Virus record (IMG/VR): IMGVR_UViG_2541047861_000012
Location: 1-19,841 of that record
Direction: 5' to 3' (one strand)
DNA from: a virus
Lineage: Duplodnaviria > Heunggongvirae > Uroviricota > Caudoviricetes
DNA length: 19,841 nucleotides
Of this stretch, positions 517-17,114 are shown piece after piece. Position numbers and translations under genes: made by a program. The notes under the pieces are model-generated. The model did no database searches. It was given only the letters and a program-made list of their open reading frames with translations, and was not told the origin of the DNA. Each line of letters begins with the position of its first letter. The first letter of the stretch is position 1.

Positions 517-531
517 TAATCAGGAGGAGTC

Positions 532-1071: not shown

Positions 1072-1109
1072 ACGATGTTAGTAACTTCAAACCTATAATT
1101 CTTTAGGAT

Positions 1110-1144: not shown

Positions 1145-1289
1145 ATTCATAGTGCAGGGTCAAATCATTCCCACTCAATTATTTACGATAACCATAACCA
1201 ATTGAGTGATAACATTTTTCCAAAGATGAATTTTTCCCATACCGTTTTATATACCGTCACCGGAAATCAGTACCATGAAAAATGCCATG

Positions 1290-2398: not shown

Positions 2399-2696
2399 GT
2401 TTAGACCTCGTTATTTTGAAAATTTGAACGACGTTACCGCGAGTTTTAAGAACCGCAGCAAGCATGACAGCGTTAATAATGACCTCAGATAAATCCACAG
2501 CCATTGGCGTACGTAACCAGATTGCATAGGCGACTCGAACAGGAATACTGGCCGCAGCAACAATCAGGAAATAAGCAAGCCATCCTCCCCACCTTCGGTG
2601 TTGAGAGCCGTTACGCCGGAATGTGACAACGCGAATTGCTATGCCAGTGCAAATAACTGCATTGGTGATAAGCAAAAAAAACTCATGCGTTACCAT
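2388..2696 (-). CDS. holin-like small membrane protein (second holin or antiholin)
   Basis: 102 aa; hydrophobic segments [54 protein letters not shown]; basic C-terminal tail; overlaps 2683-3087 by 14 nt and the endolysin by 11 nt. Confidence 0.55.
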
Positions 2697-3087
2697 CGTC
2701 TTTTCTCCCCGGAATTAACTCGCGTGGATTATCGGAAAGGTGATAGAGCCATATACCAATACGCACAGCGACAATTGCTGACACGAATGCGCCTGCAGAG
2801 AAAACAATCCCTTTTTCAAAAGAGTCCTGCGTGATGGTAGGGATCAGGCTAGCTATGCCGATAAGAATTGATGCTGCTGGTTTGTAAAAGAGAAGGCCGC
2901 AAAGAAAGCTGAGCATCGACAGGAGCACCCGGCGACGGATGGGGTACTCTACTGCAGAGGTAACAAAAATTACCGCCCCAGCCAAAGCCCCTAAAGCAAC
3001 CTCCGGAGGGACACCTGCAATAACCGCAGCAAGAGAACCAAAACTAAGCAACTGATTTAATTGCTCACTTGTTACTTGAGCAGACAT
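2683..3087 (-). CDS. holin (class I-like, 3-4 TM segments)
   Basis: 134 aa; AGGAG about 5 nt upstream of ATG 3087 on the minus strand; several TM helices and charged C-terminus [13 protein letters not shown]; first gene of the lysis cassette. Confidence 0.65.
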   Translation of the reverse strand: MSAQVTSEQLNQLLSFGSLAAVIAGVPPEVALGALAGAVIFVTSAVEYPIRRRVLLSMLSFLCGLLFYKPAASILIGIASLIPTITQDSFEKGIVFSAGAFVSAIVAVRIGIWLYHLSDNPRELIPGRKDDGNA

Positions 3088-3368
3088 ACTTTCTCCTGTT
3101 TACTATCTATAAGCCAGTCAATTATTGATGACTAAACCCGCATAGTAAACCATATATGAATCATTATTGTTCCATATCATATATCTCAATAAAAGTACTA
3201 ATTATTTTACAGAACGAGCCAGCAGAGTGGGGGCAGTTGTACAGGAACCATAGACTTAATTTTGTATTTAATAATGCTATGGTGTAATAAACCTGAACAT
3301 GTATTTAAAATACGTACTGATTCATGATAGAATTCAAAGATAACTTTTCACCAACTCCGTTTTTGATA

Positions 3369-3395
3369 CCCGCAAAATATTGCGGGCTTTTTTTT
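3369..3395 (+). terminator. rho-independent terminator oriented for plus-strand transcription
   Basis: 7-bp stem CCCGCAA (3369-3375) / TTGCGGG (3380-3386), loop AATA, then C plus T8 (3388-3395). The minus-strand RNA would have no U-tract after the hairpin (reads UAUCAAAAACGG). Confidence 0.5.
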
Positions 3396-6300
3396 AACGT
3401 TCTTCCAGAGACTGAATCCGCTCTTTTATCTTATCCATTTCTCTGCGCTGCCATGCTGCCTCGATATAGAATAAGAGATCAGGTCTGACCCCCCATCTAG
3501 ATCCTGCTGGCGTTATTTCAACGCGCTCAATGATGTCTTCCATTACCATCACTGGATTATCATCCTCATCAACAATGATGCTCCCGTCATTATCAGTCAG
3601 CTGTATTTCCCTTTGGCCAGTAATGACGTCATCATATACTGCGGGATAATCGTCATAGCAAAGAAAGGCATAGCGGCATGTTGTGCTTTCTTCTTCCATG
3701 AGTCCGTGAGAAATAAGAACATCACGAAGTTGCTGCGCGATTACACCATGATGTATCCTCGCCCCTTCTTCTCCCTTTATAGCGACAGCGTTCAGCCATT
3801 TATAAGCGATATACCTGACGTCACCCCAGGCATCCAGCAATGCTTCGTCAGGAGAGACCGGCTCTGTCTTTAATGTTCCGTCACTGGTAACCACAGGATT
3901 GGAGCCAAGATAAACTGTCGAGAACCTGTTTCCCGGACCACCAAGAGCATTTACATTATCAAGATAAGGTTTAACATCTCCGTTCTCAAAAAGATGTTCG
4001 AGTGCGTTATATACCGCGCGACGTGGAGTACTGCTTCCGGAACCATGCAACGTTATCATTGCACCATCTGCTGAAGACGTTGTTTCACCGCCGCTAACGA
4101 TTAATCTCTGAGCGGTAACATCATCAGACGGTACTTTCTTCGCAATAATGGCGTAATTGCCCTCCAGTTTGACTTCCGCGCGAACTTGTCCTGATGTACC
4201 TGCATGGACAGTCAGTGACTGGACGGCAACATCATCTGTGAAATCAACGGGTACAGGAACCGTCCTCACGCCGGACGTCGACATAAAAGTAGGAAGCGTT
4301 CTGTTAGGAGTGGCTCCGTAGACAAAATCCCTTGAAACAAATTCTTCCTGTTTAATTTTCACCCTGAAACAATACAAATCAGCCGGGTGACCATCGTGAA
4401 CATAAGGATATTTTCTGTTGTTATCCCCTATGCTCCATGGGTTTAGAAAGTCTTCCCCACCGAAAATGTAGTACAGCCAGTTGTCTTTGATACAAACTGA
4501 ACCAACACCAACCGCAGAGTTAACTATTCCGCCCTGATAAATCTGATCAGTAACATTAACCCACTCTACATTATCCAGACTCCACTCATTGACGTTAACT
4601 CTGGTCATAAATGTTCTTGGATAATTTCCTGCATAACGGTTATCAGGTTCTCCTCCTTCCCACTCACCAAATGCGCGCTCACTGCCAAAAATAATCAGCT
4701 CATCGCCAACTTTGGCAAAAGGAAGGTTTGAGTGATGAACATTATTTGGGAAGCGAAGAGAATTCCATGATGCACCTAAATCAGAGCTTCTGTGCAATGA
4801 ACTACCGGGTTGAGTACTTAATGTCCCCCTGGTCGTCAGATACAGAATGCCATCATAATATTTTACACATGGCTCAGATGCATTCGCCTCATATTCTGCA
4901 GGTATGCGTCTGCGAACAAAGCTACCAGGAGAACCGAAAGCATCAGAGAAATAGAGTATCCCAAGCTCGCGTGGACCAATATCACCATTATGGTAGCCAA
5001 CAGCAAAACTGTTATCGCTAATCGTCGCAAAACTGTGAATCTCAGTAACAGGAGTGCTTCCGTCAACAAAAGAAGAAATAGTTCCAAGACTGGTTTTTCT
5101 CCATGGTGACGAGTGAAATGATGTACCAAAACTCCAGTATCTACCCTCGTTATTCTGATCCACATCCTGAGTATTTTGCGTCGTAACTGTAAAAGTATTT
5201 TTATCAATAACAGTAGTCACCGTCATATTCCCGGTAACACCTGTAACACCAGAGTTTGAGAAGTTGACAAAATCACCAGCAAATAATCCGTGATCAGTAA
5301 TGCGAATATAAGCGACTTGCTGATTTGCTGCTTTCGTTATACCACCATAAACGCGAAGGCTGCGACTCATTGGACGATCCCACAACTCTGCAACCTGCAG
5401 TTTATTTCCGCGCACGGTCCGCGTCTCAATTACAGCAAAAAGGCGATTTCTGACAACCCCCATACTCATGCAGTGATAGTTAACTGTGGGATAGTTTTCA
5501 TGTAAATCTGTAAGCCATTCCGGCGTTGTCCAGGTCTTCCCGTCATCTCCTGAGCGAACCCATGCAACATGGAGGTTATTTACACCATGGCGGTCTCCAG
5601 CCATAAAAGGCGCATAGATGACATTGTCATATACAAACGTTTTATCCTGCGTCCAGGCGTTGTACCACGGTGTATCTGTAATTTTAAATAACTCTCCCTG
5701 GATAAAATCTTCAGAAGCATAAAAAAGAGGCTGACCCGGTATTCTCTCAAATAAAAAACGAGCATTTTTAAATCGGCTGACATCCGGAAGAGTTGATACT
5801 TTAAAAGTAAGCCCTAATCCGTCAATTTTATAACCTGGAGATGAGGCTTCAAGGCACGCGCTTATTGCAGTGGAATCGTCATTTATACCATCACCAACAG
5901 CTCCAAAATCTTTGGGGCTAATAGCATCACGCATTTTATCCTGGAACGTTCGGTATACTGCCCCAGAACCATACTGAATAAACCAACCAAAACCACCAAC
6001 AACCCCGGCGATTGCAGCATCGACATAATTACGCATTGAGCGATTATTTACAGCGTCCTGTTCAAGTGATGGATCTGCAAGGTTAGAAATTCTGTTTTGC
6101 TTTGCATCGTAATATTTTGCAAGCAAAGATGGTTTCATCAATGCACGTCTGAACCATCCAAAACATTGCTGGATCAGCATCGTCAGGTAGTCAAAGGCAT
6201 CTTCATGCACTTCGGGGAAAAACTTTCCCTGATTGCGAAGGTCTGTCTCCTGCACTACATCAAGCACACGATCTATCGTAATTCTCCATCCAGTAGCAAG

Positions 6301-6513
6301 CGGCGACGGAAGAACCACAGAACCGCCACTATAAGTGCCCGCCCCAGTTACCGTATAACCGGTATCCAGAACCAATTCTGTTACGTTCCCGTTCAGGTCA
6401 GACACCTGAACAACCAGGTCGGATTTTCTGAAAATTCGAAAAGTATACGGAAACGATGTCGTAACGCCGTTACCGGTGTATTCGTTGTGGTCAACTTCGG
6501 TTGAGACCGTCAT
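3394..6513 (-). CDS. tailspike/tail fibre with depolymerase domain (T7 gp17-like N-terminal anchor, Asp-box sialidase-like region, C-terminal S74 intramolecular-chaperone domain)
   Basis: GGAG 7 nt upstream of ATG 6513; residues about 10-115 resemble the T7 tail-fibre N-terminal particle-binding domain; pectate-lyase-like motif DFGAVGDGINDDSTAISA (201-219); Asp boxes SGDDGKTW (321-328) and SSDLGASW (576-583); predicted autocleavage site VVTS/DG (877/878) followed by a chaperone-like C-terminus. Substrate not determinable by eye. Confidence 0.85.
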   Translation of the reverse strand: MTVSTEVDHNEYTGNGVTTSFPYTFRIFRKSDLVVQVSDLNGNVTELVLDTGYTVTGAGTYSGGSVVLPSPLATGWRITIDRVLDVVQETDLRNQGKFFPEVHEDAFDYLTMLIQQCFGWFRRALMKPSLLAKYYDAKQNRISNLADPSLEQDAVNNRSMRNYVDAAIAGVVGGFGWFIQYGSGAVYRTFQDKMRDAISPKDFGAVGDGINDDSTAISACLEASSPGYKIDGLGLTFKVSTLPDVSRFKNARFLFERIPGQPLFYASEDFIQGELFKITDTPWYNAWTQDKTFVYDNVIYAPFMAGDRHGVNNLHVAWVRSGDDGKTWTTPEWLTDLHENYPTVNYHCMSMGVVRNRLFAVIETRTVRGNKLQVAELWDRPMSRSLRVYGGITKAANQQVAYIRITDHGLFAGDFVNFSNSGVTGVTGNMTVTTVIDKNTFTVTTQNTQDVDQNNEGRYWSFGTSFHSSPWRKTSLGTISSFVDGSTPVTEIHSFATISDNSFAVGYHNGDIGPRELGILYFSDAFGSPGSFVRRRIPAEYEANASEPCVKYYDGILYLTTRGTLSTQPGSSLHRSSDLGASWNSLRFPNNVHHSNLPFAKVGDELIIFGSERAFGEWEGGEPDNRYAGNYPRTFMTRVNVNEWSLDNVEWVNVTDQIYQGGIVNSAVGVGSVCIKDNWLYYIFGGEDFLNPWSIGDNNRKYPYVHDGHPADLYCFRVKIKQEEFVSRDFVYGATPNRTLPTFMSTSGVRTVPVPVDFTDDVAVQSLTVHAGTSGQVRAEVKLEGNYAIIAKKVPSDDVTAQRLIVSGGETTSSADGAMITLHGSGSSTPRRAVYNALEHLFENGDVKPYLDNVNALGGPGNRFSTVYLGSNPVVTSDGTLKTEPVSPDEALLDAWGDVRYIAYKWLNAVAIKGEEGARIHHGVIAQQLRDVLISHGLMEEESTTCRYAFLCYDDYPAVYDDVITGQREIQLTDNDGSIIVDEDDNPVMVMEDIIERVEITPAGSRWGVRPDLLFYIEAAWQRREMDKIKERIQSLEER

Positions 6514-6650
6514 GTTAAATCTCCAGATAGTCGCAGCACCCGTTGCGCCGCATATCTGGTCATTCTATTACCTAAAAAACCACATATGGATAGAAAGACT
6601 GTGAATACGAATAGATATTACCTTTCGGGTAATTTGCAAAACGTGCTGGA

Positions 6651-6687
6651 TAGCAAACAAATTATTTGCTACTGTATAAATATACAG
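6651..6687. promoter_or_regulatory. operator-like tandem inverted repeats upstream of gene 6710-6967
   Basis: TAGCAAA-N7-TTTGCTA (6651-6671) immediately followed by CTGTATA-AA-TATACAG (6672-6687, contains TATAAAT), ending about 10 nt before the GGAG of gene 6710. Confidence 0.3.
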
Positions 6688-6709
6688 TTATTGCATGGAG
6701 AATATTAAG

Positions 6710-6967
6710 ATGCAGCAGTATCACTATCCACTGGAAGACGGATTTACCGAAAGGATTCACACGCCGGGAGGCGTCAGGTCACTGGTGGAGGGATCGCACT
6801 TGATGAAATTACTCCGGGATCTCGATAAGGATGGATTTAATGTCGATGGCCCACTTGCCGAACTGACTGCACTGATTAACTACGTCACCAGCTCACAGAT
6901 GTCTATGCAGGATCTGCAAACACATCTCGACTATTGTGCCGAACAATTACGAAAACAAACCAGATAA
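6710..6967 (+). CDS. small stand-alone homologue of the antirepressor C-terminal module
   Basis: GGAG at 6697-6700, 9 nt before ATG 6710 (the in-frame ATG at 6695 has no SD); 85 aa; SHLMKLLRDLDKDGFNVDGPLAELTALINYV...MQDLQTHLDY aligns with the shared C-terminus of 7283-7978 and 8987-9925 (SLLMNLLNQLQEDGHDVSGAAAELTTMFCYIV...LRDIQTHAEY). Confidence 0.55.
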   Translation: MQQYHYPLEDGFTERIHTPGGVRSLVEGSHLMKLLRDLDKDGFNVDGPLAELTALINYVTSSQMSMQDLQTHLDYCAEQLRKQTR

Positions 6968-6997
6968 GATTTGAAATTACCAATAGGAGTGCTTATA

Positions 6998-7014
6998 TTT
7001 ACCTTTGCGGTAAA
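6998..7014. promoter_or_regulatory. operator-like palindrome TTTACC-N5-GGTAAA (copy 1)
   Basis: TTTACC (6998-7003), TTTGC, GGTAAA (7009-7014), nested inside a longer inverted repeat GGAGTGC (6986-6992) / GCACTCC (7023-7029). Identical half-sites recur at 8151-8167. Confidence 0.3.
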
Positions 7015-7105
7015 TTTACATCGCACTCCTCTTGTGCCATAGTAATCGGGCACTGGCAAAATCCAGTGCCGGGATTGGCGTCCCGGATTACTAAAAGGCG
7101 CATTC

Positions 7106-7125
7106 ACCGCGCAAGCGGTTTTTTT
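7106..7125 (+). terminator. weak rho-independent terminator in the leader of the Bro-N antirepressor gene
   Basis: Short stem ACCGC (7106-7110) / GCGGT (7115-7119), loop GCAA, then a T-run to 7125; preceded by hairpins at 7049-7070 and 7069-7086 that share bases. Confidence 0.3.
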
Positions 7126-7282
7126 ATGCGTATAGCACGGCCACATTCGTATTATGGTGGGCTGTGTGGGGGCACCGAAAGGTGCGCCGGGTCCTTTTAG
7201 CCGGTTACGCCAACCCTGCACAGTTCACCACCAACCGATTGGCGTCGGTAGTGGTGATTAACCAGACTAAAAGGTAACCACT

Positions 7283-7978
7283 ATGACAGCTACAAAAAGC
7301 ACGTCCATTTTTTCTTTCGAATCCCAAGCCGATATACGGGTAATCGTCATTAATGGTGAGCCATGGTTTATCGCTTCAGATGTTTGTCGGGCTATAGGCA
7401 TAGCAAACCATCGAGATGCTGTTCGAAAACTTGATGATGATGAGAAGGGCGTCGCTTCAACCGACACCCCTGGCGGTGAGCAAGAATCGATCATCATCTC
7501 CGAGTCAGGCCTCTACACACTGATCCTCCGCTGCCGCGACGCAGTGACACCAGGCACTATCCCCTACCGCTTTCGTAAATGGGTTACAGGTGAGGTTCTT
7601 CCTCAGATCCGCCGCACCGGAAGTTACATTAAAAACTCGCTCCCGCAGGAAGAACGCATAAAGATGGTTGCCGACCAGGTAGCCAACGCCACAGCATCAG
7701 CAGTGATGCAGGCAATGAAGATAGAGAACAAAACCTACAGTGCCCCGCTGAAGCCCGGCTACCGCAGTTTGATTCACTCGCCGTCTGGTGTTCTCGGCCT
7801 GACGGAGAACTCACTGCTGATGAATTTGCTGAACCAGTTACAGGAAGACGGGCATGACGTATCGGGCGCGGCGGCGGAACTGACCACCATGTTCTGCTAC
7901 ATCGTCGGTGTGAGTAAATGCCTGCGTGATATCCAGACTCACGCGGAGTACATCAACGACAAAGCAGGATTCTTCTGA
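7283..7978 (+). CDS. antirepressor-like protein (Bro-N N-terminal domain plus shared antirepressor C-terminal module)
   Basis: AAGG about 8 nt upstream of ATG 7283; Bro-N signature FESQADIRVIVINGEPWFIASDVCRAIG...ESGLYTLILRCRDAVTPGTIPYRFRKWVTGEVLPQIRRTG; last 77 residues identical to those of 8987-9925. Confidence 0.8.
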   Translation: MTATKSTSIFSFESQADIRVIVINGEPWFIASDVCRAIGIANHRDAVRKLDDDEKGVASTDTPGGEQESIIISESGLYTLILRCRDAVTPGTIPYRFRKWVTGEVLPQIRRTGSYIKNSLPQEERIKMVADQVANATASAVMQAMKIENKTYSAPLKPGYRSLIHSPSGVLGLTENSLLMNLLNQLQEDGHDVSGAAAELTTMFCYIVGVSKCLRDIQTHAEYINDKAGFF

Positions 7979-8000
7979 CGGGCGGCGGCACAGGGATGTG
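7745..8000. repeat. inverted repeat copy A (3' end of gene 7283-7978 plus about 22 bp)
   Basis: Reverse complement matches 8964-9220 at about 93% identity (16 mismatches in the 231 coding nt plus one indel in the 3' flank). Similarity begins exactly at the first codon of the shared 77-aa module. Confidence 0.85.
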
Positions 8001-8150
8001 CCTTTAAATAATTCTGTACAGATTGCAGACTGGGGGTGAATAGCGTACTATTACCTCACGGGTGATCCATAGCGATTAGGCACCGATACAGGAGGAGCCC
8101 ACATGAGAAAATTTGACGAGTACGAAGGCGTTTAACATTCGGATAGTTCA

Positions 8151-8167
8151 TTTACCCTAATGGTAAA
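8151..8167. promoter_or_regulatory. operator-like palindrome TTTACC-N5-GGTAAA (copy 2), about 40 bp upstream of gene 8207-8842
   Basis: TTTACC (8151-8156), CTAAT, GGTAAA (8162-8167); TA-rich -10-like sequence TATATATTAT at 8187-8196; GAGG SD at 8197-8200. Confidence 0.35.
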
Positions 8168-8206
8168 TCCCGCTTAAAGAAGCATCTATATATTATGAGG
8201 TGATGT

Positions 8207-8842
8207 ATGCCACAACAACTGCTGAATCCGGCAAAGGTAACTGAGGTTTTCGCTCATCTGAACGAAACTCCAGACAACCGCGCCCTGTATTCAGAGTTAG
8301 TGAACGGCAACGATGTCACATCTGATGTCAAAGGCGTTTCTCTGGCTCCTGGATACCGCGTTGTCCGTGTAGACGATCGTAAGAAAGGCGAGATTCCACA
8401 GGCGCACTTTGAACTGTCATTGATAAATGACCTCACCGAAGAGGTAGTGTATTACAATCGTGTCATTATCCAGCCTGACAGCTATCTTAACTGCCGTCCT
8501 GTCACGCAGATATTGGTATGGAGAACCCAGAAGCCTAAGCATCGTGCTGTGCTTCATGATTTCGCTGGCATCATCTTCATGAACTACCTCTTGGAACGGT
8601 ACGATATCATCGTGTCTGATCGCAACCAGACTCATGAAGGCATGTCGTTCTGGCAGGCTCGCATGTATGACGCACTGGAACTTGGCCTCCATCTCTATGG
8701 TTACGACATGATGACATGCGAACTTATAGAGATGAATAACGAGGAAGAACTTGAGAAAGGTGAAACCTGGTTGTGGGGTGATGCGGAAAACTTCCAAAAC
8801 AGATTGGCCATAATTTCAAAGCATAAGCTGCCAATAAAATAG
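8207..8842 (+). CDS. hypothetical protein, 211 aa, no recognisable domain (orphan moron between the two antirepressor genes)
   Basis: ATG 8207 with GAGG SD 6 nt upstream; uninterrupted 211-codon ORF; no TM segment or signal peptide; own strong terminator at 8851-8871; lies inside the segment bracketed by the 256-bp inverted repeat. Confidence 0.7.
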   Translation: MPQQLLNPAKVTEVFAHLNETPDNRALYSELVNGNDVTSDVKGVSLAPGYRVVRVDDRKKGEIPQAHFELSLINDLTEEVVYYNRVIIQPDSYLNCRPVTQILVWRTQKPKHRAVLHDFAGIIFMNYLLERYDIIVSDRNQTHEGMSFWQARMYDALELGLHLYGYDMMTCELIEMNNEEELEKGETWLWGDAENFQNRLAIISKHKLPIK

Positions 8843-8850
8843 TTCTTTAA

Positions 8851-8871
8851 GCCCGCGCCGCGGGCTTTTTT
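8851..8871 (+). terminator. rho-independent terminator of gene 8207-8842
   Basis: GC-rich hairpin GCCCGCG...CGCGGGC (8851-8865) followed by T6 (8866-8871). Confidence 0.7.
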
Positions 8872-8910
8872 GTGTCTGCGGATTCCCGCCCGGGCGGCGG
8901 TGGCATTCGT

Positions 8911-8935
8911 TAAAAACAAGGCCGCGAAAGCGGCC
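8911..8935 (-). terminator. rho-independent terminator of the arc-ant operon
   Basis: Stem GGCCGC (8920-8925) / GCGGCC (8930-8935) with GAAA loop; on the minus strand the hairpin is followed by UUGUUUUUA (plus 8911-8919). A further palindrome CCGCCCGGGCGG (8886-8897) lies between the two convergent terminators. Confidence 0.6.
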
Positions 8936-8963
8936 TGTGACATGTCACGCTAGTTTCGTTTTG

Positions 8964-9220
8964 CACGTCCCTGTGCCGCCGTTCTGTCAGAAGAACCCTG
9001 CCTTGTCGTTGATGTATTCCGCGTGCGTCTGGATATCACGCAGGCATTTGCTCACACCAACGATGTAGCAGAACATGGTGGTCAGCTCCGCCGCCGCGCC
9101 CGATACATCGTGCCCGTCTTCCTGTAACTGGTTCAGCAGATTCATCAGCAGTGAGTTCTCCGTCAGGCCGAGAACACCCGACGGCGAATGAATCAGACTG
9201 CGGTAGCCTGGCTTCAATGG
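8964..9220. repeat. inverted repeat copy B (3' end of gene 8987-9925 plus about 23 bp)
   Basis: Partner of 7745-8000; see copy A. Confidence 0.85.
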
Positions 9221-9925
9221 ATAACCATAACATTTTGTCTGTGTTTTAATTGCCTCACGAAGCGCATCTAACATCTTGACTGCCACTTCATCATTCTCTG
9301 ATGCAGATCCAGCAGGGAGATACTCCCCTTCAAGCGGAACCCGAGCAACAAGAGACAACGCTTCGGCAAATTGATCTTCACCAATTTCTTTGTACGAACA
9401 GCCAAAATGAGATTTCAGTGACGACCACATGGTGATCATCGCCTTAGCCTGTTTTTCTTTTGGCAGAGACTGACCGCGACTCATGACGAGTTGTTTAATG
9501 GCTTCCTGCTGTTCAGTTGTTATTTTACCCGGCAACGCCTTTTTAGCTTTGCGTGGGTTAACCACATGGCCTTTAGTCCAGTACTCGTAGAGCACATCGT
9601 CACACTCTTCCTGATACTGGATTACCTTGTCGCGGATTTCAGGGCGGACTTTGTTAGGGCTGATGCTGTTCAACCAAGCTGCCAATTTTCGTAAAGCCAT
9701 ACAAATCATGGCTTGCACCCCACCGGCAGAAGGTATGGTGATTTCCACCATACCCTTCGAGAAGCGTTGAGAAATCTTCTTATGTTGAGATTTCCAGTCT
9801 AGCCCCATTCCCTCAACGATAGGTTTCATTGGGGTATACGGTTCGCCGTTGTGATTGACAACATAAAGCTCTGCGCCGTGGAATGGCACGTTGATAGTAG
9901 ATACTGCTGTTGCTATACTCGTCAT
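8987..9925 (-). CDS. ant: antirepressor (Ant-like; AntA/P22-Ant-type N-terminal domain plus shared C-terminal module)
   Basis: 312 aa; follows the arc-like gene on the same strand after a 72-bp spacer; N-terminal region INVPFHGAELYVVNHNGEPYTPMKPIVEGMGLDWKSQHKKI resembles phage antirepressor N-terminal domains; C-terminal 77 aa identical to 7283-7978. The symbol is given by position and domain analogy to P22 ant. Confidence 0.8.
   Translation of the reverse strand: MTSIATAVSTINVPFHGAELYVVNHNGEPYTPMKPIVEGMGLDWKSQHKKISQRFSKGMVEITIPSAGGVQAMICMALRKLAAWLNSISPNKVRPEIRDKVIQYQEECDDVLYEYWTKGHVVNPRKAKKALPGKITTEQQEAIKQLVMSRGQSLPKEKQAKAMITMWSSLKSHFGCSYKEIGEDQFAEALSLVARVPLEGEYLPAGSASENDEVAVKMLDALREAIKTQTKCYGYPLKPGYRSLIHSPSGVLGLTENSLLMNLLNQLQEDGHDVSGAAAELTTMFCYIVGVSKCLRDIQTHAEYINDKAGFF
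9891..9919 (+). promoter_or_regulatory. candidate sigma70 promoter for an antisense (sar-like) RNA
   Basis: -35 TTGATA (9891-9896), 17-bp spacer, -10 TATACT (9914-9919); predicted start near 9926, i.e. opposite the ant start codon (9923-9925). Confidence 0.4.
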
Positions 9926-9999
9926 GTCGTTAATTCCTATACGTAGTTTTACGATACTGAAGCCCTGACGGTCTGGCCACCGTGGGGCTTCGCTGTTTT
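9926..9999 (+). ncRNA. predicted sar-like antisense RNA covering the arc-ant intercistronic region and ant ribosome-binding site
   Basis: Transcript predicted from promoter 9891-9919; ends at stem GAAGCCC (9959-9965) / GGGCTTC (9985-9991) with inner stem ACGG/CCGT, followed by GCUGUUUUA (9992-10000). About 70 nt, same size and topology as P22 sar RNA. Confidence 0.35.
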
Positions 10000-10165
10000 A
10001 TGCCACGCTATTCTTCTCACCAGTGAGTCCATACACTTTCCTCAGCTGATAGATAATCTCTGTATTGAACTTTCGGCATTCTTTTTCGCCATTTCTTTCA
10101 ATAGCTAACTTCACATCGTCCGGAAAACGAACTCGTCGTTGACACATCTCTTTTGCTTTTTGCAT
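9998..10165 (-). CDS. arc: Arc-like ribbon-helix-helix repressor
   Basis: AAGGAG SD 7 nt upstream of ATG 10165 (the longer ORF from 10186 lacks an SD); 55 aa MQKAKEMCQRRVRFPDDVKLAIERNGEKECRKFNTEIIYQLRKVY... matches the Arc/MetJ RHH pattern (compare P22 Arc RWPREV...NGRSVNSEIYQRV); first gene of an arc-ant operon. Confidence 0.8.
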   Translation of the reverse strand: MQKAKEMCQRRVRFPDDVKLAIERNGEKECRKFNTEIIYQLRKVYGLTGEKNSVA

Positions 10166-10179
10166 TTCATATCTCCTTA

Positions 10180-10248
10180 GCCCCACCGTGGGGCAAAATA
10201 ATTGTCACACCGTGCGTCATTGATGTCAAGCACACGGTGAGGCATACT
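10180..10248. promoter_or_regulatory. immI-type control region: overlapping divergent promoters with repeated CACCGTG/CACGGTG operator heptads
   Basis: Near-palindrome GCCCCACCGTGGGGC (10180-10194); CACCGTG at 10208-10214; CACGGTG at 10233-10239; a fourth copy GCCACCGTGGGGC at 9976-9988. Minus-strand promoter: -35 TTGACA (complement of 10224-10229), -10 GACAAT (complement of 10201-10206). Plus-strand promoter: -35 TTGATG (10220-10225), -10 CATACT (10243-10248). The heptad core matches the CCACGGTGG core I recall for the P22 Mnt operator. Confidence 0.55.
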
Positions 10249-10285
10249 TCAATCATTGCAAGTAACTCAATATTTGGTGAAGAAC

Positions 10286-10717
10286 ATGAGCAGAGAAGAT
10301 CCACAACTAAGGATCAGACTTCCCGTCGAAGTAAAAGAAAAAATAGAAATTTCTGCAAAAGCCAATAAGCGATCAATGAACGCTGAAATAGTACAACGTC
10401 TTGACACCAGCTTTCTGAAAGATATTCATGAAGATGACGTAATTTCTGCTTATGAAGCAAAAATCATTGCAAACAATGCACGACATGAAATATCAAATAT
10501 TATTTTCAAAAGAACCTTTAATGAAATTAATAAGAAAATAACACTTGGACATACAAGTTTTTATATAAACCTTAATGACCTTGAACTGGAATCACTTGCA
10601 GATAATGATTACCAGATCATCTTTGAAAAAACATTTAATAGGCTCAATGAACTAGGTTACATCATCTGTGAAAACTCATGGGATGCAGATGGTTTTGGAA
10701 TTGAAATACCTGAATAG
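10286..10717 (+). CDS. mnt: Mnt-like ribbon-helix-helix repressor with a novel C-terminal extension (chimeric)
   Basis: ATG 10286 preceded by GGTGA (the ORF track begins at TTG 10256); N-terminus MSREDPQLRIRLPVEVKEKIEISAKANKRSMNAEIVQRL closely parallels P22 Mnt (ARDDPHFNFRMPMEVREKLKFRAEANGRSMNSELLQIV); 143 aa versus 83 aa for Mnt; the extra acidic C-terminal part lies in the AT-rich block. Confidence 0.75.
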   Translation: MSREDPQLRIRLPVEVKEKIEISAKANKRSMNAEIVQRLDTSFLKDIHEDDVISAYEAKIIANNARHEISNIIFKRTFNEINKKITLGHTSFYINLNDLELESLADNDYQIIFEKTFNRLNELGYIICENSWDADGFGIEIPE

Positions 10718-10807
10718 GAAGAACAAAAGGCGTGTACATATTACACGTCTTTAATACAATTGAAAAACGCCACATTACTGATGTATGTTACAACAAGGAG
10801 CGATATT

Positions 10808-11371
10808 TTGAAAACCATATCTATATTAAAGGTTGCATTAGGCGTCGCTATTATTTTGACTCTCTCAATATTGTTTTATTTTTACCACAAACAAACTGCT
10901 ATTGCTCTTGATAGTCACGCGGCAAACTCATTTTTCTCAGAGTACATAGTGCCGCTATCAGGAAGCGGTATAACAAATAAATATACTGACTATGACATCA
11001 AATATGGAATTGATGATGGGGAGACTATTGTATTACATGTAATCATTAAAAACCTAATGACAGTAAATAAAAATACAGACTTCAACGATAAAAATACAAT
11101 ACATCACAACAACAGCAAAACATTAATTTCTTATAGTAGCAACATCTATACGGATAAATACCTAAAATACATATCAGAAGATACAATAAAAGAAACCCGC
11201 GAAAAGTTAAAAAACATATATTGTGCATCCGGCAGTTTTCACAAATTATCGCCGCAAGAGCGTTTATTCTACGAAGCAAGAAAACAACGTAAGTCAATAA
11301 TATTACATTATTATGCTGATTCAGGGGAGACACTCATATTTAATATTGGGGTTTCCCCTGAATCATGCTAA
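10808..11371 (+). CDS. single-pass membrane protein of unknown function in the sieA position (candidate superinfection-exclusion/defence moron)
   Basis: AAGGAG (10795-10800) 7 nt before in-frame TTG 10808; alternative in-frame starts at ATG 10781 and TTG 10760 (ORF track). N-terminal TM helix ISILKVALGVAIILTLSILFYFY then an Asn/Lys/Tyr-rich soluble domain; very low G+C; stop 11 bp from the stop of the convergent 1004-aa gene. Confidence 0.65.
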   Translation: MKTISILKVALGVAIILTLSILFYFYHKQTAIALDSHAANSFFSEYIVPLSGSGITNKYTDYDIKYGIDDGETIVLHVIIKNLMTVNKNTDFNDKNTIHHNNSKTLISYSSNIYTDKYLKYISEDTIKETREKLKNIYCASGSFHKLSPQERLFYEARKQRKSIILHYYADSGETLIFNIGVSPESC

Positions 11372-11382
11372 AGGTGTTTAAC

Positions 11383-14300
11383 TCACCGCATCACCGGATC
11401 CACTTGGTTTATTAGTGGCGCAATCCAGAACAGGTTATTGCCGGGTATCAGGGTTCGGACATTATGCACAATACGATCACCGGCATCACCATTCAACACT
11501 CCTGAGGTCACATCAATGATGCTATCCGCAAGACCAAATGACGGTCCGAATAGAGATCCTACGAATCCACGACTGGCATACCTGGACTGTGTGCCAGTGC
11601 CAAATAAAGCCCCCAGCCCAACAGCACCACCAGTCGCCTTTTCAGCCATGTTGTTATATTCCATCAATGGCCCAAGAATACCGGATCTATCTATACCCTC
11701 AAGCACCAGCTTCTCTGGTGACCAGTCAACATTTTTCCCTTTCGATGCTTCTTTAAGCGCATAGACCAGTGAGCCAAGAGCAATCTGAAATGCAGTGCCA
11801 TAATAAAATTGCGCAGTTCCTTCCTGTAACCCACCAAGTAGCGCACGGTTGTATGAAGCCGTTGTGAATGATTTAAACTGAAATATCGTTCGCCCCATTG
11901 GAGTACTCGCCCATAAAGGTGTGTCACCAATACCGGGGGTGATGATAGTGTTATTAACGTCTTTCAGAACCGCTGACTGGAATACTCCGGCAACGTACTG
12001 ATCGTCCCATTTATCAAAGTTACCAATGTGCCATCCATCAATTACCTCACCATGTTTCTCGAACTCACTGCGAATACGCGCAGCCATATTGTCGTTGATA
12101 CCGAGTTTTGCCATGCGACGTGCAGAAAACGCACCAGACAAAATACCGTCTGACGTGAGCATTCCGTTCATGGATTTGTTTATGTCATTAAATCGATCCA
12201 TGAGTGTCAGCTTGCCGAAGGCATCAGTAATTCGCTCCATTCCTGCTTCGACTGCTGTTGTCCTGGAAGAACTGTCAACAAGATCACCAATTGCACGAGA
12301 ACGTGAATGTAGTACAGTTTCCAATCCAATCCCCATCTTCAACATCTCTTCTTTGCTGGCCTTAAATGCCGGTGATTGGGATATCTGAGAAGCATAGCCT
12401 TTCATGGAGTTACGGAAACCATTAACCATAACCCCTCTGGCCAGATCTGGAATAGCTGATACTGTCATTCCACCGAGTTTGGTCGTGAAGTTCACATCCC
12501 GCAGAAAAGCGCCAGCACGAACAAAAAACGAAGACGGGTCATCAGGCATACCATATGTACCAACAAGACGATCGCGTAATGCTGTTATGTCTCTGAGATC
12601 ATTTGCTCTTGATTTTGAAAGTCTGGACTGTTCTTTCCGTAATTCCTTTTCGTACTTTCGCATTAATGAATCGAGTTTACCCTGAGGAACAACTTCACCA
12701 TTGCTCTCATAACGTGCTTTCAGATTTGCCACACTTTCGTCATATTTCGCCTTTATTTTTTCAGGCACTTCCCGTAACAGACTGTCATATTCGTCCTCAA
12801 TTAATTGCAGACGCTCTGTCATAGTTCGTTTGCCAAATGTTCTCGTCAACTCAATTTCTGCTGCCGCTTCACGGATATGACGTTGTAGAACGTAATTCAC
12901 ATCACTTTCGAGATAATCCCTGATAAGACTATCAGGCACATTTAATGTTCTTTCTTTCGTACTACCTGCGGCTTTTACAGAAAATACGCTGACAAAATCC
13001 TGTGGAACCTTAGCACCAGTAATTTTATTAATTACGATATCCGCTGCAATTTCAGCATCCTCAGGATCCAGTGTTTTATTGCCTCTCGACCACCAGTCAA
13101 CCAAAATACGTCGAAATTTATCGCGTTCACTGATTATTTTTCCAACTTTATATATACGTGGGAAATAGCTTGCCTGGCCTAATGCTTTCAGTTCTTCATC
13201 TGGCGGCAATAAACCAAGCTTTTGCATTTCAACCTTCACCCGATTTAATACAGTTCGCATCGCCTGCGCCGTTTCCTGAACAACAGGATTAGCATGCACA
13301 TCACCGCTTCGCATAGCATTCCCAACCTGCTGACGAAATGAATCAAAACTCATGTCACCACCATCAGCTTTATACTTTGCGTATGCCTGTTTATTTCCGA
13401 CAACAACAGCAGCTTCTTCACGCTGCCATCCACGTGTACGGGTTTCTACAGCTACCGGTGTTTCAATCCCCCTTTCATTTCCTTTAAGGGTGAAATTATT
13501 TTCGGCTAACTCCAGCGTTGTTTTTCGCACTGTCTTGGACGGAGACTCCATTAACCTTGTCAAAGGAGTAAGATAGCTCCCTGCTTTCCATGCAGCCTTT
13601 CCAACCACCCCACCGGAAACAGGGGTTAAATCATCCAGAGTCGCTGTATCAATTTTCATAGCACCAACACTACCACCATCAGAAAGCGAAGCGGCAGCCC
13701 TGTCAGTCGCTGATGTAATGCTCATATTATCAAGAGCATCAGCAACCTCACGCGTGGCTGCAGCCCGGACGGATGGCGAAAGCGCAACACCAGCACTGGC
13801 AAACACGCCGCTCATCATCGCACCCGCTGCAATGTGAGCGGCACTTTCACCCCATGAGCGTGTTATTTGCTGATTATTCAGCACAACCTCGCTTAATGCT
13901 GTACCGGCTGCACCAATCGCAATCTGTGAGCCAATACGCGCCAGTGCCCCTCCTTGAGCACCGGGGATAAACATTGACGCAACAGTAACCGGATCCATTC
14001 CCGCAGCAATACTGGCAAGGGTTCCAACTACGCCAGCATCAGACAATAAACGTCTGTCTTCATTTTCATCATCTATCTGCTGCTTAATCCACGCCGTTTC
14101 CTCTGGCGATCGGGAATCTGCAAATTTCGCCCCCCAGTATTCATAACCGTGCAACTCATTTTTATCAGCATATGGGTTATAACCTTCGACCGGTTCAAAC
14201 TGTCTGGCTGGTCGGAAAAAACCAGCCAGAATATTGTTCTGTCGCATTGCAGCCCCCCATACGGAAGGCTCCGGTGGCAATGGCTCAGGATTAGCCCCTT

Positions 14301-14397
14301 CCGGAAGGGCAACATCAAACCCAGTTTGTTCCGGCAAAACATTACCTGACGGGATCAGTCCGTTATTAAGATCTTCAGCTTGTGCATAAACTGGCAT
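11383..14397 (-). CDS. internal virion/ejection protein (large, gp16-like position)
   Basis: 1004 aa; start ATG overlaps the stop of the upstream gene by 1 nt (TAATG at 14395-14399); Gly/Ala-rich hydrophobic segments typical of podovirus core/ejection proteins; last large gene before the immI-like island, as gene 16 is in P22. Confidence 0.75.
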   Translation of the reverse strand: MPVYAQAEDLNNGLIPSGNVLPEQTGFDVALPEGANPEPLPPEPSVWGAAMRQNNILAGFFRPARQFEPVEGYNPYADKNELHGYEYWGAKFADSRSPEETAWIKQQIDDENEDRRLLSDAGVVGTLASIAAGMDPVTVASMFIPGAQGGALARIGSQIAIGAAGTALSEVVLNNQQITRSWGESAAHIAAGAMMSGVFASAGVALSPSVRAAATREVADALDNMSITSATDRAAASLSDGGSVGAMKIDTATLDDLTPVSGGVVGKAAWKAGSYLTPLTRLMESPSKTVRKTTLELAENNFTLKGNERGIETPVAVETRTRGWQREEAAVVVGNKQAYAKYKADGGDMSFDSFRQQVGNAMRSGDVHANPVVQETAQAMRTVLNRVKVEMQKLGLLPPDEELKALGQASYFPRIYKVGKIISERDKFRRILVDWWSRGNKTLDPEDAEIAADIVINKITGAKVPQDFVSVFSVKAAGSTKERTLNVPDSLIRDYLESDVNYVLQRHIREAAAEIELTRTFGKRTMTERLQLIEDEYDSLLREVPEKIKAKYDESVANLKARYESNGEVVPQGKLDSLMRKYEKELRKEQSRLSKSRANDLRDITALRDRLVGTYGMPDDPSSFFVRAGAFLRDVNFTTKLGGMTVSAIPDLARGVMVNGFRNSMKGYASQISQSPAFKASKEEMLKMGIGLETVLHSRSRAIGDLVDSSSRTTAVEAGMERITDAFGKLTLMDRFNDINKSMNGMLTSDGILSGAFSARRMAKLGINDNMAARIRSEFEKHGEVIDGWHIGNFDKWDDQYVAGVFQSAVLKDVNNTIITPGIGDTPLWASTPMGRTIFQFKSFTTASYNRALLGGLQEGTAQFYYGTAFQIALGSLVYALKEASKGKNVDWSPEKLVLEGIDRSGILGPLMEYNNMAEKATGGAVGLGALFGTGTQSRYASRGFVGSLFGPSFGLADSIIDVTSGVLNGDAGDRIVHNVRTLIPGNNLFWIAPLINQVDPVMR

Positions 14398-17114
14398 TAT
14401 TTAGATCCCCACGAAAAGTAATCTTTAAATTTGTCCATACGTTCGTTATGCAGGCGCTGATACTGCTCATCCAGAGCGCGATGCTTGTCTTTGAAGTTTC
14501 GTATAGCCTGTCCACGCATAATTTCTTCCTGCTCGTACTGCTCCCGTTCCTGCTGCATTTTCTTATAAGGTTCCCAATCTTCTAGTGATGGTTCCCAACG
14601 CATAGGACGCCCATGTTTGTTATAAAACGGCTGGACCCGATCGATGCCATTTTCATCCTTAGTTCTTACCATAATGGCGTAATCACCATTACGAGGTGTT
14701 AACACGTCAGGGGTTATGAATAATTCTCCATTAATACGACTCTCAGGGGTTTTTGTCTCAACTACAGGAGCATTACCTGACGTGATCCCAAGCAACGTCG
14801 GACTGGTTGTTATAATCTCTTTGCGCTCACCGTACATCAGCCGTTCTTTTTCAGCTTTCCACTGCGCCGCCTGCCAGCCTGACGGCCCATATTGATAAAG
14901 CGCCTCCGGTGCATATTTCATAAACTGCGCTTCTCCGTTAACCTCGCTGATACTCCAGGTGCGGGCTATCTGCTGGTTGGTCATTTGCTTCGCTACGTCA
15001 GCGTTACCACCAGCAACGCGGTAGTTAATGTCATACAGCGTCTGATAGTCATTACGGAATCTAGCTGCTTCCGGCGTCTGGTCATCCGCAGACGGATCCC
15101 AACGGAACCACTGCGCCATATTGCTGACAGCAGAATTCATCGCCTTGCTGCGATTATTTTTGTACTCTTTTGAACTCTGCGTTGATGCCAATTGAGCTTT
15201 AAGAGCATCGGTCTGGTTGTACGTCAGGTTCTGCGCCTGCTCGATAGCCGCATCAGCAGACATGCCAGAATCTGTTAGTTGCTTAACAGTCAGATAAAAA
15301 CCCTGCATATCCTTCGGCATATTTCCAATAGATGCATTGTCTGTTTCATATAACCGACTAAACAAATTCGCTGCATTTTTAACCACTTCCTGATTGCTGG
15401 ATCTGGATACTGCTGAAAGCTGCGTGATGACCTGCGAAGGCATGATGCCAGTCTGAGCCACAAGCCGAACAACCCCATCATGAGTGGAGGCATCATTAAT
15501 ACGAAAGTTCTGCGCCATTTCTGTGTAATCAGCAGCTTTCTGCATTGATTTGTTGCTTGGGTCTAATTTTTCACCTATTGTCAGCGCCTCATTGAATCTG
15601 CGTGAATCACGTTGCGCCTGAATTGCTTCATTTGATCGCTGAAGCAATGCAGACAATTTTCCGTAAGCATCGAGTTTTAACGCATAGTGAGGATCGTTAA
15701 CCTCAGGCTTCACTTTCTGCATTTCTTCTTGCTGCTGAGAAGGAGGTAAATACTGAATTGCCTGGAATATTCTCGCGTTATCAATCGCTATATCCAGTTG
15801 ATTGATTATTTTATCTGCATTTTTTCCATACCCCCTGATGATAGTCTCCTGAGCCGGTATATAATCTGGAACCTCACCGTTATATAGCTGGGCCATGGTG
15901 TTATTAATAGCTGGCTCAAGCTGTTCTAATATTAACTTCCTTTGCTTTTCTATCTGACTATTAGCAAGGTTATCTATTTGATAAATAGTCAGCGGATCCA
16001 TTCCAGTTTTATTTTTTCTATATCGGGAAAGCCACCCTTGTGTTTCTGATGGAAGATTTCGGATAAATTCTTCTTCTGATATTTCACCTTTACGTGGATC
16101 ACCGACTTTGGCGATCAGTTTATCCACGTTACCCATCCCCCAGTTATATGCTGCTCCGGTCAATATTTCGGAGCCGTACTTACCATACAGTTGATTTACA
16201 TAGTCACTGGCGAGCATTTCATGCTGTTGTTCGTCCGTAGGGTTGTATTTAACGCCACGCTTGGCCGCCAGTTCTTTCCCTGTGCCCGGCATTAACTGGT
16301 ATTTCCCCTGGGCTCTCTCTCCAGAAGATGTTATCGGTCCTTCAAGAAGACTACCATCAGGATTAAAATGTCGATCACCTGATTCAACAAGGCGTATGGC
16401 ACGCATGTCCATGCCTCCAGAATCATTTTTCTGAAACAGACCATTTAGCCATCCTTCTGGATTGGCAGCGGCATAATTCTTCGCCCGCATTTCTGTGGCA
16501 CGGCGATCATCACTTTCTATTTCTTCCAGAATGCGTTCTTGTGACCATCCCCTGGCAGCTCCATATCTAGCAATGGCTACCATTCTGGAATTTCTGGCTA
16601 AAGTGGCAGTTTGCGGGTCATTCCAGGCATCCGCTTCATTTTGTATCCATAATTTTCTCGTTGCCTGATATTGCTCATCTTCATAGGCATTTGTCTGCCC
16701 TATCTCATGTCTGAGAACTCCAGTACTGAACTGAATTTTCTGTGTTCTGGCTTGTTGCAAAAACATATTTCTTGCTGCTTCATCAGTCAATGAAGCAGCT
16801 ATTTCTTCCACATCCTGATCAAATCCAGATATGTACTCTTGCCCCTTACCAATCGCATTTTTGCCTTGTTGTGCATAAAAACCGGTTTGAGGGTTATAAA
16901 GACGTTCATTGCTGCGCTGATTAAGCTGAAGGATGGCATCCTGAGACAATGCAACATTCGCTTTCTGCCTGGCTTCACCATATGCCACCGCATACTGATC
17001 TGCGACATTCGCCAGCACCTGACCTGCTTGAGGAACATCGAAGATCTGAAAACCACCGGTTTGCACACCACGACTTTGCACCTGGCGTCCGGATGTAGTA
17101 GGAACAACAGGCAT
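14397..17114 (-). CDS. internal virion protein with soluble lytic transglycosylase (SLT) domain
   Basis: 905 aa; SLT signature around residues 236-330 (RLVESGDRHF...GKYQLMPGTGKE...AAYNWGMGNV); 1-nt start/stop overlaps with both neighbours. Confidence 0.8.
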   Translation of the reverse strand: MPVVPTTSGRQVQSRGVQTGGFQIFDVPQAGQVLANVADQYAVAYGEARQKANVALSQDAILQLNQRSNERLYNPQTGFYAQQGKNAIGKGQEYISGFDQDVEEIAASLTDEAARNMFLQQARTQKIQFSTGVLRHEIGQTNAYEDEQYQATRKLWIQNEADAWNDPQTATLARNSRMVAIARYGAARGWSQERILEEIESDDRRATEMRAKNYAAANPEGWLNGLFQKNDSGGMDMRAIRLVESGDRHFNPDGSLLEGPITSSGERAQGKYQLMPGTGKELAAKRGVKYNPTDEQQHEMLASDYVNQLYGKYGSEILTGAAYNWGMGNVDKLIAKVGDPRKGEISEEEFIRNLPSETQGWLSRYRKNKTGMDPLTIYQIDNLANSQIEKQRKLILEQLEPAINNTMAQLYNGEVPDYIPAQETIIRGYGKNADKIINQLDIAIDNARIFQAIQYLPPSQQQEEMQKVKPEVNDPHYALKLDAYGKLSALLQRSNEAIQAQRDSRRFNEALTIGEKLDPSNKSMQKAADYTEMAQNFRINDASTHDGVVRLVAQTGIMPSQVITQLSAVSRSSNQEVVKNAANLFSRLYETDNASIGNMPKDMQGFYLTVKQLTDSGMSADAAIEQAQNLTYNQTDALKAQLASTQSSKEYKNNRSKAMNSAVSNMAQWFRWDPSADDQTPEAARFRNDYQTLYDINYRVAGGNADVAKQMTNQQIARTWSISEVNGEAQFMKYAPEALYQYGPSGWQAAQWKAEKERLMYGERKEIITTSPTLLGITSGNAPVVETKTPESRINGELFITPDVLTPRNGDYAIMVRTKDENGIDRVQPFYNKHGRPMRWEPSLEDWEPYKKMQQEREQYEQEEIMRGQAIRNFKDKHRALDEQYQRLHNERMDKFKDYFSWGSK

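Follow-up and report, generated by a model that had tools for sequence, protein, structure and literature searches.

Rep operators and the cargo slot

The Rep/Ant lysis-lysogeny switch of SPC32H was reportedly described by Kim and Ryu in 2013 and by Kim and colleagues in 2016, and this switch, shared with epsilon15, and the immI regions of P1/P7 (c4-icd-ant) and P22 (mnt-arc-ant-sar) are the closest described relatives of the locus analysed here. In P1, the promoter of the c4-ant operon bears an operator of the master repressor, as it does in this locus. The DNA in question, referred to as the window, is a stretch of 19,841 nucleotides (nt) from a virus record of the Caudoviricetes (IMG/VR record IMGVR_UViG_2541047861_000012, positions 1–19,841). 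It contains a gene for a cytoplasmic 211-amino-acid (aa) protein of the phrog_1349 family (8207–8842, plus strand) with a predicted GNAT (acyl-CoA N-acyltransferase) fold, which was named the cargo gene. As in the SPC32H/epsilon15 switch, an 85-aa Ant is encoded behind a LexA box, Rep is present in sister prophages and the operator is ATTACC-N5-GGTAAT, whereas the Ant fold occurs here in three copies, two of which are fused to Bro-N and P22_AR_N, and a cargo slot with predicted Rep control lies between two Ants, its GNAT gene being outside the described switch. Similarly, C4, the a1/b1 targets and isrK are found in the leader of the Bro-N ant gene as in P1/P7, and sar is found beside the arc-ant operon as in P22, but the two systems stand here side by side in convergent orientation and the operator comes from another repressor family. 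The elements that a preliminary description had read from the letters of this region, namely the open reading frame (ORF), its Shine-Dalgarno sequence, an upstream palindrome, a leader mini-ORF, a terminator, an inverted repeat and convergent antirepressor neighbours, were all found to be present.

The palindrome had been taken as the gene's own operator and as a sign of independent regulation. This view had to be given up, as the palindrome is, on sequence grounds, the operator motif of the prophage master repressor Rep (PDB 5D50 family), which is annotated in epsilon15 and distributed genome-wide, and a second copy lies on the -10 element of the slot promoter. The exact copy, ATTTACC-CTAAT-GGTAAAT (8150–8168; core TTACC-N5-GGTAA at 8152–8166), is located 40 nt upstream of the start codon at the left edge of the GNAT-specific cassette, and accompanies the gene into the Dickeya-, Yersinia- and LLS-type contexts. 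The other, an operator-like site TTACCTCACGGGTGA with one mismatch (8051–8065), covers the -10/+1 region of the slot promoter; in TL-2011b and other slot alleles, the operator found there is exact. Four TTACC-N5-GGTAA sites with at most one mismatch were found in the window against 0.38 expected, a number reached in none of 200 shuffles, and these start at 6618 (upstream of the 85-aa gene), 6999 (at the -10 of the c4-ant operon promoter), 8051 and 8152.

The same motif was found in the related phages. TL-2011b contains 10 exact operators (0.01 expected), two to the left of the HTH_3 repressor gene and two between it and the divergent cro-like gene, as OL and OR, while the remaining ones precede the genes of the small terminase and the head or are placed at the ant and cargo promoters. 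The GNAT-carrying prophage of EC0026B has seven operators at TL-2011b-like places, 14.6 kb of the chromosome next to it has none, and exact operators number 11 in epsilon15 and nine in phage Tyrion. In the RefSeq record of epsilon15, all seven annotated “repressor” protein_bind sites carry the motif as ATTACC-N5-GGTAAT or TTACC-N5-GGTAAT. A scan of viral contigs with TACTATTACC-N5-GGTAA gave mostly operators upstream of Uetakevirus small-terminase genes, and this was the lead to the genome-wide operator. In TL-2011b (locus L196, 11590–11622) and in 48 of the 81 viral-contig matches, the stretch from a terminator hairpin to the start codon of the small terminase holds tandem Rep operators, from where Rep appears to block the packaging/head operon directly. 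The TL-2011b repressor gp10 was homologous to SPC32H Rep (PDB 5D50 chain A, E = 3e-41), and Rep of this group of phages, when overexpressed, shuts off lytic transcription and the lysis genes (PMC9782041). Two Rep operators between the slot promoter and the gene predict that the gene is repressed in the lysogen and freed once Rep is inactivated, and the cargo gene most likely belongs to the prophage immunity regulon, being off in the lysogen and turned on when the prophage is induced or a new cell is infected.

The operator was also found with family members outside the Uetakeviruses. The 42.9 kb of LLS contain a single exact operator, which immediately precedes the family member of this phage, gene 57 (locus L197, 42053–42067), while its own repressor is unrelated to Rep and its own operators differ. 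Similarly, a Yersinia myovirus prophage, the own repressor and operators of which are unrelated to the Uetakevirus ones, has one exact operator between the -35 and -10 elements of its copy (locus L009, 7929–7943). Because synonymous sites are saturated between the genes of the window, LLS and Yersinia while the operator arms persist, the 10 conserved arm bases are probably under selection. The simplest reading of these sequences would be that the cassette left the Uetakeviruses with promoter and operator attached. For the most part, the other family members in viral contigs have no operator upstream.

Two other binders of the palindrome were considered. Autoregulation by the GNAT-fold protein was first suggested by a palindrome type that apparently co-varied with the protein clade. 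It was dropped, as the N-terminal helices are the ordinary GNAT alpha1/alpha2, the motif is that of Rep, LLS and the window share the operator and not the N-terminal sequence, and hhalign comparisons with Rep and Cro were empty. The operator also bears some resemblance to an MqsA-type ACCT-N3-AGGT box. Rep was preferred over a host transcription factor, as the sites cluster at OR/OL and are lacking in the 14.6 kb of flanking chromosome.

The comparison across related prophages that the preliminary description had proposed revealed conserved edges with variable content, and its wording of a cargo gene was borne out, at least eight unrelated cargos being swapped between conserved anchors in sister prophages. 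Homology to the sister prophages ends at 8055–8063 (8148 for strain F11) and restarts at 8848/8875, giving a slot of about 8064–8874, with a sigma-70-type promoter overlapped by the Rep operator at its left edge and a back-to-back terminator pair at its right edge. The contents listed are the 211-aa gene, a 30% identical paralogue that is itself 84% identical to LLS gp57, two YafO-like toxin types each preceded by a small ORF, the DUF4760 membrane protein of strain F11, and three sets of uncharacterised genes. PADLOC 2.0 gave no match to a catalogued defence system for the 211-aa protein or any other slot cargo. The putative slot promoter, read from the sequence as TTGCAG-17 nt-TACTAT (8023–8051, plus strand) just past the Bro-N stop codon, is conserved in all cargo types up to 8055–8063, and its TACTAT/TTACC arrangement recurs in viral contigs with the slot promoter (L079, L083, L085, L093 and others) and in LLS.

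The leader (8064–8148) is common to the 211-aa cargo and the DUF4760 cargo of F11. It contains a putative mini-ORF of 10 codons, MRKFDEYEGV (8103–8135, plus strand), with AGGAGG at 8090–8095, which was intact in 13 loci of two cargo types with one Y-to-H variant. Since leader and mini-ORF are shared with the DUF4760 allele, the mini-ORF belongs to a leader that serves two cargos. The 5' leader RNA folded no better than shuffles (z = +1.0). In the F11 allele (locus L004, 5505–5575), the mini-ORF is followed directly by a GC-rich hairpin and a T-run, a layout that looks like a leader-peptide attenuator. The cargo gene is closed by an intrinsic terminator (8849–8867, plus strand) with an 8-bp stem (6 GC) and a T-run, which is shared with the F11 and L079 cargos, and which faces the intrinsic terminator of the arc-ant operon (8919–8936, minus strand) within the conserved right anchor (8875–8962).

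Distribution and predicted fold of the 211-aa family

The product of the cargo gene had been regarded as an orphan without a motif that could be placed. Instead, it was found to be a member of a large conserved family for which a GNAT fold is predicted. It matched phrog_1349 (function unknown) with E = 2.9e-78. The gene has a GAGG Shine-Dalgarno sequence (8197–8200) 6 nt upstream of the start, and the M1-P2 start was unchanged across 46 relatives. There were 94 close homologues in Enterobacterales, none of them named, and a profile of the 46-member family collected 910 clusters at 50% identity when 1.84 billion representatives were searched. The sequence itself gave zero matches in Pfam, NCBIfam, PADLOC and PDB, and literature searches by protein accession and operator string returned nothing. 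The identical protein is present in 1525 index blocks of public assemblies and in just 13 of 5426 complete E. coli genomes. Substitutions against the Dickeya copy (pN 0.066; pS 0.76, saturated) and the E. coli IAI39 copy (pN 0; pS 0.044) indicated strong purifying selection on the cargo gene at the sequence level.

Relatives occur in diverse surroundings. A podovirus prophage of Dickeya that is without the large antirepressors carries one in the same slot, the copy in the Yersinia myovirus prophage lies among tail genes, from which long intergenic gaps separate it on either side, and the lambdoid phage LLS has its relative placed after the lysis genes. Plasmids of Aeromonas, Shewanella and Raoultella carry further relatives, and in Photorhabdus and Enterobacter chromosomes the family member stands alone. 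The chromosomal clade of Photorhabdus (loci L036–L063; about 53% identical) is inserted between ycgN and hslJ/ldhA, as seen in L048, and its members share near-identical upstream DNA, in which TTGATT-17-TACTAT followed by TTACC-N4-GGTAAT, with a spacer of 4 nt and not 5, lies about 48 nt upstream of the gene. A second paralogue in the same genomes has the other palindromes TTATC-AATTT-GATAA and TTGAACC-N3-GGTTCAA.

Remote-homology search and structure prediction, as the preliminary description had recommended, gave no sequence link and a confident GNAT-fold model. The AlphaFold2 model built with the family alignment had a pLDDT of 85.3 and a pTM of 0.81, and Foldseek searches against PDB and BFVD agreed on the GNAT fold, the BFVD matches being phage proteins of about 190 aa that are uncharacterised and reach TM-scores of up to 0.8. 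The model shows the GNAT topology beta1-alpha1-alpha2-beta2-4-alpha3-beta5-alpha4-beta6 and has an extra strand and a C-terminal helix-strand in comparison with the superfamily. The nearest solved structures were the acetyl-CoA-binding C-terminal domain of M. tuberculosis ICL2/Rv1916, NatD/Naa40, Hat1 and AAC(2')-Ia at 5–13% identity, and the other structural neighbours included MccE, ArsN and streptothricin-type acetyltransferases. Profile searches of PDB with the family gave no match. On inspection of the alignment and the model, the loop after beta4 (strand 99–106) reads R106-TQKPK-H112 and is basic without glycine, and the most conserved stretch of the wider family, SDxxQTxxGxxFW (137–149), lies ahead of the next helix. 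Thus, the protein shares the predicted fold of the GNAT superfamily but not its Pfam profile match, a canonical pyrophosphate-binding loop is not evident by eye, and the model identifies it as a divergent GNAT-fold protein. No relationship with Mu Mom, a DNA-modifying protein of acyltransferase fold, was seen by hhalign (probability 0.15%).

The inverted repeat and the role of the cargo gene

The preliminary description had placed the gene inside an inverted repeat of 256 bp and 93% identity, figures that fit the core, whereas the full arms are longer and less alike. The left arm (7710–8001, plus strand) consists of the SPC32H-type Ant domain with which the Bro-N antirepressor ends and 23 nt of 3' flank, and the right arm (8963–9255, minus strand) is the same Ant domain, which there forms the C-terminus of the P22_AR_N antirepressor (phrog_450/15539). 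The arms align over 294 columns with 88.8% identity, and a 237-nt core is 92% identical. Across the core, the two arms specify the same 78 residues and differ by 16 synonymous changes and by none that is non-synonymous, and the left-arm domain of the Bro-N protein matched PDB 5D50 chain E (E = 1e-13). These sequences identify the inverted repeat as a shared, selected Ant protein domain carried on two different N-termini, and the 16 synonymous differences across the 78 identical codons argue that recombination has not homogenised the arms.

Inversion between the arms, which had also been proposed, was upheld weakly and on the evolutionary scale, but the GNAT cargo was found in one orientation and no invertase lies nearby. 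An artificial flipped junction was used as query, consisting of Bro-N-specific sequence, the arm and the reverse-complemented terminator anchor; the Bro-N-specific part was needed, since the arms are repeats. This query was covered to at least 80% in 12 of 5426 E. coli genomes versus 280 for the normal junction. Four of five genomes inspected had the normal orientation, the distal partner being a second c4-Bro-N gene beside a truncated P22_AR_N gene; in E. coli TUM9803, N21 and CE0007a this truncation was 3'. In the fifth, E. coli MS 196-1, the promoter-cargo-terminator module is flipped relative to the tailspike, the small Ant and the Bro-N gene, and this slot holds a cargo other than the GNAT gene with an ORF6N-type Ant on its far side. 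The GNAT cargo itself was never seen flipped in 10 contexts, 13 complete genomes and nine viral contigs, and no recombinase or invertase gene was found in the window or the annotated sister loci. The second Bro-N partners and the flipped slot of MS 196-1 argue that the Ant-domain repeats mediated several rearrangements, so the arms are best read from sequence as rare recombination substrates over evolution, with no sign of an active switch. Inverted repeats also bracket the invertible segments of Mu G, P1 C and Hin/Gin/Cin, but recombination there uses short crossover sites and a serine invertase encoded next to them (seen in Mu and LLS), whereas this locus has 290-nt coding repeats, no invertase and a fixed orientation of the GNAT cargo.

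For the role of the gene, we consider at about an even chance that it is a Rep-controlled cargo, the GNAT-fold product of which is made on derepression and then affects a target in the host or in a competitor, either as an acyl-CoA-dependent effector or as one that binds CoA. In the lysogen, Rep would occupy both operators and keep the cargo gene off. It would be removed by the LexA-controlled small Ant first and then by the large Ants, which are themselves under Rep control. Once Rep is removed, or where it has not yet accumulated in a new infection, the cargo would be transcribed along with the antirepressor operon, and its product may bind acyl-CoA or transfer an acyl group to a target in the host or a competitor during early lytic development, with counter-defence or host takeover as the outcome. 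Counter-defence by acetylation would have a precedent in AcrVA5, a GNAT of phages that acetylates Cas12a; like the 211-aa protein it is a small GNAT-fold protein borne on mobile elements, but it does not reach half the size of that protein. The proposed function, for which an early acyltransferase-like effector is the best guess, stands on much less firm ground than the architecture and the Rep wiring. The predicted Rep control makes us favour a role early or in the lytic phase more than one exerted in the lysogen.

Several observations weigh against this role. GNAT models of Pfam matched none of 89 diverse family members at E ≤ 0.1, and the canonical acetyl-CoA loop Q/R-x-x-G-x-G/A was not recognisable by inspection of the 211-aa protein; because neither the Pfam link nor an evident loop of this kind was found, the protein could, like its top structural match, be a pseudo-enzyme that binds a ligand. 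The operator over the slot promoter has one mismatch in the window, the promoter has a weak -35 (3/6 match) and was missed by a consensus scan, and operator occupancy and promoter activity were deduced from position alone. The YafO-like toxin cargos fit defence or addiction as well as takeover. Lastly, the chromosomal copies are conserved among Photorhabdus and Enterobacter species, which argues for a bacterial benefit without a lytic cycle.

The last point leads to the alternative that the gene is a lysogenic-conversion or defence “moron” expressed in the lysogen, which protects the host by phage exclusion or abortive infection, the operators being leaky or mere insulators against read-through from the ant operon. 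Its own promoter-like element and strong terminator between conserved phage genes, the variable slot with toxin-like cargos, the family members alone in chromosomes and on plasmids, which suggest host benefit, and the copy between tail genes in the Yersinia myovirus prophage with its long gaps would all fit, and morons and hotspots such as lambda bor/lom and those of P2/P4 are likewise single genes with promoter and terminator, variable in cargo and conserved at the borders. Here, however, the slot promoter and the cassette carry master-repressor operators, two of them between promoter and gene and one over -10/+1, this operator type also precedes the genes of the small terminase and the head, and PADLOC found no known defence system in any slot allele, unlike in the P2/P4 defence hotspots, so that expression in the lysogen, the defining trait of morons, seems doubtful from the sequence and we regard this alternative as a minority possibility. 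What speaks most for a function that benefits the host is the presence of copies on chromosomes and plasmids, and what speaks most for an early phage function is where the operators lie. A small-molecule acetyltransferase that detoxifies an antibiotic, a microcin or an anti-phage metabolite and so protects the cell or the replicating phage is suggested by the neighbours AAC(2')-Ia, MccE, ArsN and the streptothricin-type enzymes, and Photorhabdus and Xenorhabdus, which are prolific makers of natural products, have an expanded and vertically retained set of family members. The gene context is without resistance genes, though, and the antibiotic sensitivity of a ZX5 lysogen was unchanged, ZX5 not being known to carry the gene (PMC9782041); this alternative was therefore considered unlikely.

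The position of the gene between Rep-binding antirepressor genes and under Rep operators, as well as the Rep-type operators kept upstream in LLS and the Yersinia myovirus prophage despite saturated synonymous divergence, would also agree with an enzymatic part of the immunity switch that modifies Rep or an Ant and reinforces induction, or that in heterologous elements reports the state of Rep of a co-resident Uetakevirus. In other phages, though, the operator is missing from most family members, the protein has no similarity to Rep or Cro by hhalign, and the slot position says little on function because the same slot holds unrelated cargos, which makes a part in the switch quite improbable. 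A slightly less doubtful but still long shot is that the family is tied to the Rep switch as an acylating antirepressor or a counter-defence effector set free by loss of Rep or, in LLS and the Yersinia prophage, as a sensor of a competitor repressor. The YafO-like toxins in the slot recall a GNAT toxin of a type II toxin-antitoxin system (TacT/AtaT-like) with the mini-ORF or a neighbouring gene as antitoxin, but no antitoxin-like gene (RHH/DUF1778) was adjacent in six kinds of context, including E. coli, Dickeya, Yersinia, Photorhabdus and Enterobacter, the upstream ORFs differ between contexts, and the 10-aa mini-ORF is shared with the DUF4760 cargo and absent elsewhere. Moreover, at 211 aa the protein is larger than AtaT (180 aa) and TacT2 (154 aa), and its structural score is no closer to these than to other GNATs, so a toxin is highly improbable. 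Equally improbable is an invertible switch in which the 963-bp segment flips between the arms to alternate expression states: the long inverted repeat and the oppositely oriented arm-promoter-cargo-terminator-arm module of MS 196-1 speak for it, but the arms are coding, 89–92% identical, different only synonymously in the core and not homogenised, recombinase genes are missing from the window and the annotated sister loci, and neither the single orientation of the GNAT cargo nor the normal orientation of four of the five flipped-junction genomes agrees with it.

Rep, Ant, the operator, c4, isrK and sar are already known, and the literature searched gave no GNAT-fold assignment for phrog_1349, no Rep-controlled cargo slot and no Ant-domain fusions that create a repeat, the novelty of these three being incremental. 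The widespread, unannotated phrog_1349 family of phages, plasmids and chromosomes thereby gains a predicted fold and, in one phage lineage, a predicted regulatory input, which makes it an easy experimental target. A cargo hotspot with a promoter under predicted master-repressor control is delimited in the Uetakevirus antirepressor region, and if its cargos indeed appear only when the repressor falls, they would be candidates for early counter-defence or host takeover and not for classical lysogenic conversion. Should a tie of the GNAT family to the Rep switch or to the sensing of a competitor repressor hold, it would represent a new class of GNAT-based effector of mobile elements. For annotation, a long inverted repeat around a gene may be two copies of a fused protein domain.

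The antirepressor region and the rest of the window

The 85-aa SPC32H-type Ant gene (6710–6967, plus strand) matched PDB 5D50 chain E (E = 4e-47) and has a perfect LexA box TACTGTATAAATATACAGTT (6671–6690) directly upstream and a Rep operator (6618–6632), found by motif scan, ahead of it. The same arrangement of LexA box, Rep operator and Ant is present at gp19 of epsilon15, and the LexA-boxed Ant can be read from the sequence as the SOS trigger of the prophage. The Bro-N-type antirepressor gene (7283–7978, plus strand; Pfam Bro-N, E = 2e-21) is preceded by a region (6971–7235, plus strand) with the promoter TTGAAA-17-TATATT, a Rep operator (6999–7013) and a P1-like immI leader, in which Rfam models identified c4-a1b1 (7037–7089), isrK (7050–7125; E = 4e-16) and the C4 antisense RNA (7150–7235; E = 1e-14). 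A terminator-like hairpin (7106–7119) was noticed within this P1/P7-type leader. Overexpression of ORF4 of ZX5, a homologue of the Bro-N antirepressor gene, promoted lytic growth (PMC9782041). The opposite strand carries the P22-like arc-ant operon with an Arc-like ORF (9998–10186), the sar antisense RNA (9927–9994; above the Rfam gathering score) between this ORF and the ant gene, and the P22_AR_N-type antirepressor gene (8987–9925, minus strand; Pfam P22_AR_N, E = 6e-45). The region thus stacks, as judged from its sequence, three antirepressor controls, namely LexA with the small Ant, Rep and c4 RNA with the Bro-N Ant, and an Arc/Mnt-like pair and sar with the P22_AR_N Ant, and the cargo slot is placed between the control of the Bro-N Ant and that of the P22_AR_N Ant.

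In order, the window contains host yfgI (DUF5384), a lysis cassette, a tailspike, immunity-type genes (6600–11400) and T7_gp14/SLT-type ejection proteins. Its DNA and gene order agree with phage TL-2011b and with E. coli prophages integrated at guaA, and guaA is the demonstrated attachment site of the Uetakevirus phage ZX5 (PMC9782041). By this synteny and attachment site, and also by the lysis cassette, the endosialidase tailspike and the ejection proteins, the window was typed as the right end of an epsilon15/phiV10/TL-2011b-type (Uetakevirus) prophage; Uetakevirus prophages are present in about 9% of complete E. coli genomes. The tailspike gene (3394–6513, minus strand) encodes a complete endosialidase of 1039 aa with End_N_terminal, beta-propeller, beta-barrel, tail-spike and S74 chaperone domains, so that K1-capsule specificity of the prophage is likely, and different tailspikes occupy this position in sister prophages.

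The GC content falls sharply to 31–33% over 10300–11371, a stretch that spans the C-terminal part of an Arc-family gene (10286–10717) and an ORF of 203 aa (10760–11371; phrog_8033, function unknown). This ORF adjoins the ejection-protein genes and gave a weak TIR-like match in PADLOC (E = 0.006), and it may be a further foreign cargo. In P22, the matching position beside the ejection-protein genes is that of sieA.

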